Below, in pieces: positions 2,478-19,399 of a stretch of 20,000 nucleotides of DNA. Within the stretch, counting starts at the first letter, position 1. The number at the start of each line of letters is the position of its first letter. Source of the DNA: an uncultured virus (IMG/VR IMGVR_UViG_3300025327_000013) (taxonomy: Duplodnaviria; Heunggongvirae; Uroviricota; Caudoviricetes); IMG/VR virus record IMGVR_UViG_3300025327_000013; one strand, 5' to 3'. The notes under the pieces are model-generated. The model did not search any database. It worked only from the letters and a program-made list of their open reading frames with translations, and was not told where the DNA came from. Made by a program: the position numbers and the translations under genes.

Positions 2478-3358
2478 TTGATTCGGCGGTGCGAGATCGG
2501 ACGGCGTGCATGATGAGAGTGAGGAACGAAGAAAGATGGCTAAAAAGGTCACTTGAGCGGACTTACCAGGTGGCAAAGACCGTTGTGCTGTTTGACGACG
2601 GATCTGAAGACAGAACTATACGTGAGGCGCTTGAGACCGTCCTGCCGAGTACGGATGTCATTGATCGCCTGCTGGCTGCGCCAGATCCCATTGCTGTGGC
2701 GTACAACGATCGGTGCTTGTATGTAATCCGTTCTCCGTTTCGGTACAATGTAGTGCGGCCACGAGAGTCAGTCAATGAAATCGTGGATAAGGTGATACTC
2801 TGGCGGTTTGTTAAAGCGACCGTGGATTTTGACTACATACTCTGTCTTGATGGCGATGAAATTCTTACGCTGGCAGCCATTCGTAATTGGTCGTCGGCTA
2901 TCGAACAGATGCGCTCGGGCATTGACATCTTGCACATTCCGTTCCTTTACGCTTGGGATGCAGAAGATCGACGTCGCGTGGACGGTATTTACGGGGACAT
3001 CCCTGGTAGTTCGTTCGCGAAGTTGAATTTCCCGAGGCTCTTTACCATTCTTCGACTGAACGAACATTCTTTGTACAATTCTACCTTCCAGTGGCATGGC
3101 ACACAATGGAGTCTTCACGGAGGCAGTGTGCCTCGCCAGAACTTTCGACCTCTCGGGGCTGAGCCGACGTCTGGGAATGCCCACCTTCCTGTTTTACACC
3201 TTGGATACGTGTCTGAAGAACTCCGGCAACGAAAGTTCATTTTTTATAATGCTCAGGATCCGGCCAACGACGCGGAAGGGCGGTACGAACATATTGTAGG
3301 AAGAAGTGATATTCATGCCCCTGGACCATTGGAATTTGTATCCTGGAGCGATACATGA
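2474..3358 (+). CDS. GT2-like (GT-A) glycosyltransferase
   Basis: VRNEERWL, FDDGSEDRT, CLDGDE (DxD), HLGY. Confidence 0.85.
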   Translation: MIDSAVRDRTACMMRVRNEERWLKRSLERTYQVAKTVVLFDDGSEDRTIREALETVLPSTDVIDRLLAAPDPIAVAYNDRCLYVIRSPFRYNVVRPRESVNEIVDKVILWRFVKATVDFDYILCLDGDEILTLAAIRNWSSAIEQMRSGIDILHIPFLYAWDAEDRRRVDGIYGDIPGSSFAKLNFPRLFTILRLNEHSLYNSTFQWHGTQWSLHGGSVPRQNFRPLGAEPTSGNAHLPVLHLGYVSEELRQRKFIFYNAQDPANDAEGRYEHIVGRSDIHAPGPLEFVSWSDT

Positions 3359-12642: not shown

Positions 12643-13662
12643 ATGCCAAAAGGATATGTCACATCTGACATGATCGACCTCAATGAGCTGTGGTATGCAG
12701 GCGGTGGTATCGCCGCTGCCGTCGATCAGTATCAAGCGGTCGAGATGCCGCTACTAAACGCACTCGCATTGCCGTGGCCGGAAAACATCATGAAGTACGG
12801 CATCAGCGAACGGAACGGATTCCAGGTCCTCGGGCCTGGGGAACGGCCAGACCGCAAGTACGTCGTAGAAGCGACGATGTACCCCGTCGTGACGAAGTAT
12901 GGCTACGGCGTGGGGACGGATCTCGATACCCTGCAACGCTCCAGCGCGCGGCAGATCATGCTCGCCATGAACCGGCCGATGCTGGAGGATCCTGAGCACA
13001 TCCTGACGCGCATTCTCAAACTTCTAATGACGAACCCAGGTACCAGTAATGCTGGGTACGGATTCTGGAACGGGCAGTACGCGGCAGAGGAAATTATCAC
13101 GCATCCGCCGGCCTATCAACAGCAGACGTTTGCGGCTGGCCACAACCACTTCTTGGTGTCGCTCACGGCCAGCACACTCGTGCTCAAAGACATCACCGCG
13201 ATGAAGCAGACAATCCGGCATCACGGGGCCAAGGGCACACTGCTTGGTTTCATCAATTCCGATACCGCGATGGCGATCGAGAACCTTGCGCTCTTTACCG
13301 TCGGCAGCACGGCGCTGGTGCGTTCGCCTGTATCGGATACCGTTGCGGTCGACGGCTTCGGGGAAAGCTTCAGGCTGCTCGGTGTCGACTGGTACGTCAC
13401 GGAACTCGTGCCGGCCAACTACGTCCTCATGGTCGAAGGCAATTCTGCCGAGACTGAGCGGCCGTTGATCATGTACGAGCCCGCCGCGATGCGGGGGCTC
13501 AGGCTGCATCCAGGGCCGATGAACGACTATCCGCTCATCGAGTCCTTCTGGGATCGGTGGTTTGGATTCAAGGTCGCCAGGCGCGGTTCCGGTGCTGCGC
13601 TCTGGTTTGGTGCGCACGTCGGGACGTATACGTCGCCGACATTCTCGTTCACGGCGTCGTAA
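12643..13662 (+). CDS. Major capsid protein (probably HK97 fold)
   Basis: 339 aa, strong SD, position after scaffold and decoration genes, downstream hairpin. Confidence 0.75.
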   Translation: MPKGYVTSDMIDLNELWYAGGGIAAAVDQYQAVEMPLLNALALPWPENIMKYGISERNGFQVLGPGERPDRKYVVEATMYPVVTKYGYGVGTDLDTLQRSSARQIMLAMNRPMLEDPEHILTRILKLLMTNPGTSNAGYGFWNGQYAAEEIITHPPAYQQQTFAAGHNHFLVSLTASTLVLKDITAMKQTIRHHGAKGTLLGFINSDTAMAIENLALFTVGSTALVRSPVSDTVAVDGFGESFRLLGVDWYVTELVPANYVLMVEGNSAETERPLIMYEPAAMRGLRLHPGPMNDYPLIESFWDRWFGFKVARRGSGAALWFGAHVGTYTSPTFSFTAS

Positions 13663-17145: not shown

Positions 17146-18244
17146 ATGGCAACTGCACGCATGAAGAAGGGTAGGCGCCCGCGGGGAGGAGTCACGCACT
17201 CCTCGATTCATGTCCGCGGGTTCGCTCGGATTCAGATGGGGGAGAGGGTCGACGGTCACCTGAAGATTGTCGGTGATTCCGGGTGGCTGAAGAACACGAT
17301 TACCAACGAGGGGCGCAATCTGTACATCGCGGCGCAGGTCGGCTCTGTCACCGGTTCCAAGCAGGTGAACGCGCTCCAGCTTGCGACGCAGCAAACCGCT
17401 GTCGATGCCGCGTCCACGGCTCTTGTGGGTGAGACGCGCGTGCGGAAGACACTGCTGGCGTCCACCCTCGCAACGGGTACGTTGCGGATGACCGCGTCCT
17501 GGTCGTCTACGGACAATGCGGCGGCGATCACCATCGGGTCGATCGCTGTGTACAACACCACTACCGCTGGGGCGGGTACCATGGGATCGGGCCAAAGTTT
17601 CACAACTTTGACTGTAAAATCAACTACTTACAGAGCGCCTGCTCTTTATCTAGTTGGTTGCGGAGCCTTGGCTGCGTGAGCTACCAAGGGATGGCCGCTA
17701 ATTCGGCGAACGCTGTGATGCCAACGCCGAGCGAAATGCCTGAGGCGATGAGGACGCGCTCGCAACACGTCTCAGGTATCTGTGTAGAGATCATATACGG
17801 CCCTCTTCGGCGCGTGCAGACCGGAGATGAAGACATGATCCATGCCCTGGCGAATGATAAGTCAGGGAACCAGCCCGATAGCCCAGTAAATTTGACGCAC
17901 TGCGCAATGGGCGTCAAATCAAGATTTGTCGGCTACGTTACTCCTGCTGCAAAATCAACTAGTTATATCTCAGAATATGAGAGATCGGTTGATAGCAGCG
18001 TAAAGGGGTCGGCGCGTCATATTGGTGACGATATGACGGATGGTGGCGAACTCGGTGGACGCTGTGATGCCAATACCGAGCCAAGCGTTGGGTCAGGGGA
18101 GATCGCACTCGTTTGTACTGACTCAATGGCGTGTGTAGAGACTAGGTGCCACCCTCTCCCGTGCGGTAGTTTGGGAGATGAAGGTATAGTCCACTCCCCG
18201 GCGAACGATAAGTCGGGAGCCACGAGGACGAGTGGCGTTTCTAA
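17146..18244 (+). CDS. Ser/Thr/Gly-rich virion protein, predicted spliced: join(17146..17608,17903..17938,18228..18244), 171 aa
   Basis: Strong SD; NTITNEG motif. Removing two U|...G-bounded group I introns gives an open frame ending GQSFTTSQWASNQDLSATYEWRF*. Confidence 0.75.
17609..17902 (+). ncRNA. Group I intron 1 (294 nt, no ORF)
   Basis: P2 CCTTGG/CCAAGG; P3 GGCCG 17693/CGGCC 17798; P4 TTCGGCG/CGCCGAG; P7 GAGATCA 17787/TGATCC 17836; P9 CCTGGC/GTCAGG. IGS GTTGCGGAG 17657-17665 pairs with ligated exons CTT|CGCAAT. Confidence 0.85.
17939..18227 (+). ncRNA. Group I intron 2 (289 nt, no ORF)
   Basis: P1 TACGT/GCGTA with U.G; P2 CGTCATAT/ATATGACG; P3 GGTGGC 18042/GCCACC 18148; P4 CTCGGT/ACCGAG; P7 GAGACTA 18138/TAGTCC 18187; J8/7 GAAGGTA; P9.0 CTC/GAG directly before the terminal G. 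Confidence 0.9.
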
Positions 18245-18280: not shown

Positions 18281-19399
18281 GTGATTTGGACGAAGGAGAT
18301 GGATGCACTACTGCTCGAGAAGTATCCGAGCGAAGGTGCCCGTCCGTGCTCGGTACTATTCGGCGTATCAATCGACGCCGTATGGCACCGAGCACGGAAA
18401 CTAGGCTGTCATGCGAGCAAGGAAGTGCAGAAGTCTGCCATCCGTAGATGGAAAGACGAGTACGACGACATTCTTCGGAAACGGTATGCAGTCGACGGTC
18501 CACAAAGAATAGCAGCAGAACTCAAATTATCTAGGCAAACCGTAGAGAATCGGGCAGCGGCTCTTGGTCTTACAAAGGGACACTGGAGTCAGGAATCGGA
18601 TGCAGTAATTAAATCCGGTTATGCCGCAGATGGTGCTGCAGCCGTTGCTAAGGTTCTAGGGGTACCAATTTCTGCTGTGTACCACCGTGCCCGACGACTT
18701 GGAATTAAATATGACTGGAAGACTCGTCGTGGACAGTCGCAGTGGCTTTCAGAAACAGTACGTGTAACCGCAGCTATCCGTGATGATTTAAAGTGTGGAA
18801 TTTACGCTATTCGACATGGTGACAGTGGTCGGATGTATGTTGGTAGTGCTCTTGATATCTTTTCAAGATGGAAGGTACATCTAAGGGGTTTGCGTCAAGG
18901 TAAGCATCATTCTAGGGCATTACAAGCAATCTTCGATAAATATGGACCATCAGCATTCGTTTTTGAAGTTTTGGAAGAATGTGCTTCTGAACAGCTTTAC
19001 GAGCGCGAACAGCAGTTCATGAATATTCATAAACCTGACTTAAATTCGGCTCCAAACGCGGGGAGTCCACGTGGCATTAAACGCACTGCTGAGCAACGTG
19101 TTGCCCATACAAAGAGAATAAGAGCTATTTACGCTGATCCAATTAAGCGCAAACGCATTAGGGCAGCAAAGTCAGCGGCTATGCGTGAAAAGTGGAAGAA
19201 CTCAGAATTTCGAGGCAGAATGTCGACGGCTTGGCGTACGCGTCCGTGGGATGGCGAGGAGGATAATTACCTTTTCAATCTCTCTGGGCATCTTCCTCTT
19301 AAAGAATTAGCCGTAGTTTTTGGCCGAACACCGTCGGCCGTCCAAAATCGTGTCCATTTCCTCGGTCTCAGTCTCCGCGCCAAAGGAGCGAGGGTGTGA
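18281..19399 (+). CDS. Free-standing GIY-YIG endonuclease with HTH-like repeats
   Basis: CGIYAI..RMYVGSA..RW..H..FEVLEEC..REQ..N. Repeat W..E.D..L..Y..A..S..V..RA..LG occurs three times N-terminally and once C-terminally. Confidence 0.92.
   Translation: MIWTKEMDALLLEKYPSEGARPCSVLFGVSIDAVWHRARKLGCHASKEVQKSAIRRWKDEYDDILRKRYAVDGPQRIAAELKLSRQTVENRAAALGLTKGHWSQESDAVIKSGYAADGAAAVAKVLGVPISAVYHRARRLGIKYDWKTRRGQSQWLSETVRVTAAIRDDLKCGIYAIRHGDSGRMYVGSALDIFSRWKVHLRGLRQGKHHSRALQAIFDKYGPSAFVFEVLEECASEQLYEREQQFMNIHKPDLNSAPNAGSPRGIKRTAEQRVAHTKRIRAIYADPIKRKRIRAAKSAAMREKWKNSEFRGRMSTAWRTRPWDGEEDNYLFNLSGHLPLKELAVVFGRTPSAVQNRVHFLGLSLRAKGARV

Follow-up and report, generated by a model that had tools for sequence, protein, structure and literature searches.

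What holds the downstream exon in place at the 3′ splice sites of two introns that follow one another at the end of a phage gene? P9.0 and P10 are described in PMC3984707 as the standard 3′ splice-site elements of group I introns. For the locus studied here, a sequence-only reading had proposed that at both predicted 3′ splice sites the tail of the intron pairs with the exon that follows, so that each splice site lies at the fourth position of a hairpin loop, and had taken this pairing for an extra guide or splicing control that homologous introns might share. We examined the locus in its window, by which we mean the whole 20,000-nt stretch of DNA that was analysed, part of a 45.6-kb viral record.

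A phage gene split twice near its end

Apart from the split gene, the window carries a major head protein gene at 12643-13662, several glycosyltransferase genes and a GIY-YIG homing endonuclease gene (Table 1). Both introns fall within the last 53 coding bases of the split gene, each after the first base of a codon. The three exons and two introns were assigned because the window could be aligned to uninterrupted homologues. Among 58 protein relatives of the gene product the C-terminus is uninterrupted in 44, while nine end ..LAA and five are otherwise cut or different; the same C-terminus is coded contiguously in all 12 of the intronless loci. The 3′ splice sites that the sequence-only reading had assumed, after G17902 and G18227, are thereby borne out by the uninterrupted homologues and the intronless loci, and this alignment confirmed them on evidence that is independent of RNA structure. 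Skipping of exon 2 would stay in frame and would remove 12 residues.

The frame of exon 1 runs on as an ORF (17146-17679) which closes at TGA 17677-17679, inside the GTGA loop of intron 1 P2. This stop would fit the known idea, set out in PMC3984707, that an early in-frame stop keeps ribosomes off the ribozyme. The ORFs of 9 of the 58 homologues, with introns at several insertion sites, likewise end ..LAA as the exon 1 frame does. No Pfam or PHROG family matched the product of the split gene, BLAST against a phage GenBank collection gave no match with either the region or the whole window as query, and no relative of the protein was found in the genome contigs searched. Contigs of four DNA runs yielded only fragments identical to the window and to the third intron of this phage (see below), with no exon joints and no intronless form, and were uninformative on splicing and on covariation.

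Table 1. Coordinates of the split gene, its introns, the two hairpins and the neighbouring gene (positions in the window).
Feature	Position	Strand	Basis
Exon 1 of the split phage gene	17146..17608	+	ORF from ATG 17146; end after T17608 from the uninterrupted C-terminus of homologues
Intron 1, group I, 294 nt, after U17608, ends G17902	17609..17902	+	Junctions from intronless homologues
Intron 1 guide sequence	17657..17665	+	GAG 17663-17665 = P1 with exon 1 end; 17657-17662 = P10
Intron 1 P2, GTGA loop	17666..17689	+	Alignment of six introns
Intron 1, 35-nt tail beyond P9 (five relatives: 1-9 nt)	17868..17902	+	Intron alignment
Possible outer helix, 7 bp incl. 2 G-U, pairs with exon 2 17926-17932	17871..17877	+	Predicted
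Hairpin 1, 5′ arm ATTTGACGC, intron 1 tail	17890..17898	+	Sequence, stem scan, folding
Exon 2, 36 nt, 12 codons' worth	17903..17938	+	Intronless homologues
Hairpin 1, 3′ arm GCGTCAAAT, exon 2 codons A-S-N, +9 to +17	17911..17919	+	Sequence, stem scan, folding
Intron 2, group I, 289 nt, after U17938, ends G18227	17939..18227	+	Junctions from intronless homologues
Intron 2 guide triplet GCG, just 5′ of P2 (18015-18038), pairs with exon 2 end CGT	18012..18014	+	P1 analysis
Hairpin 2, 5′ arm GCCAC, tail spacer and last base of P9	18219..18223	+	Sequence, stem scan, folding
Exon 3, 17 nt, ends in TAA	18228..18244	+	Intronless homologues
Hairpin 2, 3′ arm GTGGC, exon 3 +5 to +9, codons E-W-R	18232..18236	+	Sequence, stem scan; codons conserved in intronless alleles
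Free-standing GIY-YIG homing endonuclease gene, helix-turn-helix domains	18299..19399	+	Pfam GIY-YIG E 4.5e-09; PHROG homing endonuclease E 7.5e-20

Both introns belong to a group I family that the Rfam model does not detect

Introns 1 and 2 were aligned by structure with four others, namely an intron at a third site in the same gene (contig L007), two tandem introns of contig L011 and the third intron of this phage, which lies in a different gene (contig L002). The alignment of the six yields P2, P3, P4, P5, P6, P6a, P8 and P9. When the P7 pseudoknot is included, 95.1% of the cells pair, and both partners vary in 37 of 51 pairs, a result that none of 500 shuffles matched (n = 6 introns). P7 itself is 100% paired in the six introns, and controls in which the strands were slid came out at 35-44% paired. 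Covariation thus supports P2 to P9 and the P3/P7 pseudoknot, and on these grounds introns 1 and 2 are tandem group I introns, predicted from their class to be self-splicing.

Searching the window with Rfam, including the group I model RF00028, found nothing, either at the gathering threshold or at E values up to 10. According to PMC11878797, in the part of that paper on this point, the Rfam group I model is incomplete and models built from existing intron databases may miss phage variants. We built a model, R1, from the six aligned introns. It scored the core of intron 1 at 195.8 bits and intron 2 at 206.7 bits, and it found exactly three matches in the 45.6 kb of the phage itself; among the matches listed it gave 82 in 94 sources, mostly viral contigs that had been found by the core pattern. 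In IMG/VR the core pattern of these introns occurs in at least 122 stretches (contigs L019-L098). By these sequence comparisons the introns are members of a large family of phage group I introns that the Rfam model does not detect.

A terminal G is present in introns 1 and 2, the L007 intron, L011 intron 2 and the L002 intron, all with junctions taken from intronless homologues. For L011 intron 1 the 3′ junction can be drawn in more than one way (L011 1125-1400): the consensus protein requires a terminal A, and the nearest junction after a G adds two residues. The third intron of this phage (L002 1412-1650, about 38812-39050 of C1) is 239 nt long and splits codon 16 of another gene of the structural region; its junctions were set by 34 homologues, its P9.0 is clear, and it shows no pairing between tail and exon. 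Immediately upstream of it there is a free-standing ORF (L002 226-1329) of double-motif, LAGLIDADG-like type. On the minus strand of contig L039 one gene has, close to its start, a tandem run of at least two and probably three introns of the family (about 550-1090 in reverse-complement coordinates), with exons of a few tens of bases between them.

P1, P10 and the loss of P9.0

All six aligned introns carry, immediately 5′ of P2, a triplet that pairs with the final three exon bases, with U-G at the junction, and three different triplet pairs occur (CTT/GAG once, CGT/GCG twice and CCT/GGG three times). As judged from these sequences P1 is short but covarying, and the exon part of the helix, at only 3 bp, is unusually short. 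Directly 5′ of the P1 triplet of intron 1, bases 17657-17662 can pair with exon 2 bases 17903-17908 over 6 contiguous bp, one of them G-U. This predicted P10 is canonical and strong for the family, as P10 in the relatives is 1-3 bp. The sequence-only reading had seen no clear P10 in intron 2, and we agree: no contiguous P10 is found there (0 bp from +1, as against 6 bp in intron 1). From the sequence of intron 2 a longer alternative guide, AGCGTA at 17997-18002, can also be read.

The usual tail of the family after P9 is about 8 nt long and consists of a 4-nt A/U-rich spacer, 3 nt of P9.0 strand and the terminal G, as in L007, L002, L039 and L045, where P9.0 makes three of three pairs with the bases after P7. 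At the same register introns 1 and 2, by our reading of the alignment, make one of three. The tail of intron 1 has no evident P9.0 in its 35 nt. Intron 2 keeps the length of about 8 nt and has lost the P9.0 register, though a shifted CTC/GAG pairing could serve as P9.0; its spacer is CCAC, against ATAA, ATTA, ATAG, GTAA and GTTA in the five relatives read. A strict P9.0 rule for predicting the 3′ splice sites of the family worked in only 4 of 76 members (L007, L002, L039 and L045) and was dropped.

Two hairpins between intron tail and downstream exon

The arms and loops of both hairpins were recovered from the window sequence by script exactly as the sequence-only reading had given them. Hairpin 1 has 9 bp and a 12-nt loop, made of ACTG before the splice site and CGCAATGG after it, which contains the terminal G together with the whole P10 partner. 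Hairpin 2 has 5 bp and an 8-nt loop, GAGG before and ACGA after the splice site, which holds the terminal G one base from P9. Neither hairpin uses the guide sequence, J7/9 or the core strands, and the P10 partner of intron 1 lies in the loop, so that the pairing is distinct from P9.0 and P10, as had been claimed, and would be compatible with catalysis. A predicted outer helix may extend the structure of intron 1, and the stem between tail and exon would then reach 16 bp. The codon choice in the exon arm of hairpin 1 differs in other alleles.

Folding of contexts of 71-711 nt gave predicted ensemble pair probabilities of 0.92-0.97 for hairpin 1 and 0.88-0.94 for hairpin 2. The local folds have energies of -11.7 and -9.2 kcal/mol (z = -2.58 and -2.59), and 3 and 5 of 200 shuffles, respectively, were as good; in the wider contexts of 71 and 55 nt z is only -1.33 and -1.67. 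The duplex energy of the whole tail with exon 2 was not significant, being equalled by 109 of 2000 shuffled tails and by 348 of 3969 natural 35-mers. In a scan of the window, 10.5% of positions lie in a loop of 3-14 nt closed by a perfect stem of at least 5 bp and 0.12% in one closed by a perfect stem of at least 9 bp (23 positions, including the loop of hairpin 1 itself). Of 19920 positions, 244 (1.2%) have a stem of 5 bp or more, and 2 (0.01%) one of 9 bp or more, whose 5′ arm ends exactly 4 nt before them. Chance is clearly an unlikely source of the 9-bp stem. The same can be said of the 5-bp stem only on condition that the common offset counts as a prior hypothesis, and this offset was noticed after the fact.

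A competing pairing was also considered, in which exon 2 GTCAAA would bind TTTGAC at the 5′ splice site and the tail would compete with it. It had been suggested by a single minimum-free-energy fold of a shortened sequence, and we rejected it, as its ensemble probability was 0.0 in contexts of 371 and 711 nt.

The helices are not shared by related introns

If the hairpins were a structural element of these introns, homologous introns could be expected to carry the same helix, and this part of the sequence-only reading was not upheld. In the four relatives with homology-defined junctions the helix is absent (0 of 4): their best stems spanning the junction are of 4-5 bp and of other geometries, the one in L007 using a P9 strand as an arm, and at offset 4 they make only 1-2 bp. 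In intron 1, 21 of 35 tail bases are predicted to pair with the downstream exon at a probability above 0.5, and in intron 2 it is 4 of 8; the four relatives gave 0 of 9, 0 of 1, 0 of 8 and 0 of 9. L011 intron 2 shares with intron 2 the insertion site and the first eight bases of exon 3, and its tail, which ends ATAGGAAG, has no match to its exon; the helices are absent from the L011 tandem pair, which surrounds an exon of 30 nt, and from the third intron of this phage.

The wider family shows no excess of hairpins either. Among the matches listed, 25 of 77 distinct members had a perfect stem of 7 bp or more close to the end of the model or beyond it, as against 25 of 70 upstream controls. Four homologues (P0002, P0003, P0010 and P0036) have an intron at the site of intron 1. 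The other copies of this phage that were examined are identical in this region and so offer no variation in the hairpin arms. Comparison across these introns indicates that the hairpins are helices specific to the two tandem introns of this phage and not the common design of the family.

Near-repeats, a P1-loop module and the neighbouring endonuclease gene

At 17896-17909 a near-repeat of CGCACTG and CGCAATG, alike at six of seven bases, is centred on the 3′ splice site of intron 1, a match reached at 0.08% of window positions. A second one, of ACGAGG and ACGAGT at 18222-18233, is alike at five of six bases (0.88% of window positions) and is centred on the 3′ splice site of intron 2. No tandem near-repeat was found at the 3′ junctions of the four related introns. 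Going by sequence, the near-repeats speak for something non-random at these junctions, for which we offer no mechanism.

The P1 loops of introns 1 (17616-17660) and 2 (17951-17994) are filled by a structured module that starts AATCAACTA, with an outer stem and an inner hairpin whose sequence varies between copies and yet stays paired. The module recurs at L007 1083-1125 and, in the intronless L013, at 2998-3040, just past the stop codon of the gene and upstream of a free-standing GIY-YIG gene. This distribution suggests exchange between an endonuclease cassette and the introns. A GIY-YIG gene directly follows the split gene here, in L007 and in intronless L013. In the window its ATG at 18299 is preceded by GAAGGAG, the ORF being listed from GTG 18281. 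The 5′ portion of the endonuclease ORF contains a long near-perfect hairpin (18343-18398), whose weak hits to microRNA models are no better than chance.

No Pfam or PHROG family matched the ORFs that cover introns 1 and 2 on the minus strand or by read-through. In the ‘collaborative homing’ of cyanophage psbA, an intron without an ORF is served by a neighbouring free-standing homing endonuclease. The arrangement here is alike in that introns 1 and 2 have no ORF of a matched family and are followed, after the end of the split gene, by a GIY-YIG gene, and mobility of these introns by such a route is putative.

What the hairpins may do

We tentatively favour a reading in which the helices are accessory tethers, specific to this lineage, that hold the 3′ exon in two introns which lack the P9.0 of their family, though we would put it at somewhat less than an even chance. 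In the unspliced transcript the tail would pair with the following exon and keep the downstream exon beside the terminal G, and after the loss of P9.0 the helices would have taken over the positioning of the 3′ exon. In intron 1 the 9-bp helix would present the terminal G and the six P10 exon bases in its 12-nt loop and so act together with P10; in intron 2, which has no P10, the spacer would have turned into CCAC, pairing with the conserved GTGG of the exon. What the analysis shows is sequence, splice sites, the fold of the introns, P1, P10 and predicted stability; that the helices form in the cell and aid splicing is our inference. Against tethers speak the absence of the helix from all four relatives with defined junctions, the lack of a family-wide excess, the ordinary duplex energy and the weak z-scores in context, and the extended 16-bp stem of intron 1 would probably place the terminal G far from P9 and P7 and hinder its docking. 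Much the same evidence serves an explanation nearly as likely as tethers, and likewise short of even, in which the complementarity is fortuitous and neutral: the tails drifted after the loss of P9.0 and came by chance to match the nearby exon, in helices that may form and have no selected role. Stems of at least 5 bp span a tenth of the window, relatives without the helix are spliced at the same site, neither the family nor the duplex energy gives a signal, and the finding was picked for its look, so that small p-values are inflated. Chance drift accounts poorly, however, for a perfect 9-bp stem that lies exactly across the splice site, as rare as the window scan found it, for the recurrence of this offset in a stem of the adjacent intron (p about 0.012), and for a spacer in intron 2 of which all four bases depart from the A/U-rich spacer of the family and all four pair with the exon.

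A stronger version of the tether seems unlikely to us, namely that the helix is an undescribed 3′ splice-site ‘clamp’ beside P10 which replaces the lost P9.0, ties each terminal G to its own exon against skipping of the 36-nt exon, and has the near-repeats as part of the same device. It is rather improbable that the hairpins inhibit or time splicing, in the sense that a hairpin around the terminal G and the exon must open before the second step and thereby slows or orders the splicing of both introns around the 36-nt exon. Their high predicted stability would suit such a role, as would the terminal G of intron 2, confined to an 8-nt loop one base from P9, and an extended stem in intron 1 that would carry the terminal G off the core; exon skipping is known for tandem group I introns flanking short exons, as PMC10136302 describes in the part that deals with them. 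Nothing points to regulation, however, ribosomes cannot unwind the helices because the exon 1 frame stops at 17677-17679, and the other tandem pair of this gene family, in L011, does without such helices. Least probable of all, in our judgement, is a feature of the DNA itself, either inverted and direct repeats that arose when the 3′ junctions were formed, or a palindrome bound by a protein, for example the neighbouring homing endonuclease. In its favour are near-repeats that are centred on both 3′ splice sites and absent from the 3′ junctions of all four relatives, and it agrees with a 6-bp palindrome, TGCGCA, in the loop of hairpin 1 and with a GIY-YIG gene 55 nt downstream of the stop codon of the split gene; but we know of no mechanism that gives such a pattern, and the outer helix of intron 1 depends on two G-U pairs, which are mismatches in DNA.

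Relation to known systems and significance

The tethers that we tentatively propose resemble P9.0 and P10, which also position the 3′ exon and the terminal G, and differ from them in that the intron's own tail pairs with the exon, at +9 to +17 in intron 1 and at +5 to +9 in intron 2. Tandem group I introns are known from orf142 of phage Twort, around an exon of 23 nt, and from the 23S rRNA of Coxiella, around one of 34 nt, and exon skipping occurs with them, as described in the part of PMC10136302 on these systems. There as here two related group I introns surround a short exon of one gene (36 nt in this phage, where skipping would be in frame). Skipping was seen in those systems, whereas the layout here is known from DNA alone, and tail-exon hairpins are not mentioned for them in that part of PMC10136302. 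In the introns of phage T4, according to the section of PMC3984707 on them, pairings between exon and intron disturb folding and are relieved by the translating ribosome. The likeness lies in an exon-intron pairing outside the catalytic core of a phage protein-coding gene, which here also has the early in-frame stop at 17677-17679; the T4 pairings described in that section involve the upstream exon and are harmful, whereas here the downstream exon would pair with the tail, out of reach of the ribosome. A narrow search of the open-access literature found no described helix between an intron tail and the 3′ exon, and we do not claim its absence from print. What would be new here is a lineage-specific pairing of tail and exon, with a putative role, in an otherwise known kind of intron.

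The firm results of this analysis are more ordinary, namely a phage gene interrupted by a tandem pair of group I introns whose family escapes Rfam, precise splice sites, an unusually short P1, and pairings that are not common to the relatives. If the helices do act as tethers, they would be a third way, besides P9.0 and P10, for group I introns to choose the 3′ splice site, and they would matter for the question of how introns packed so close together keep a tiny exon from being skipped, and for designing tandem or circularising ribozymes.
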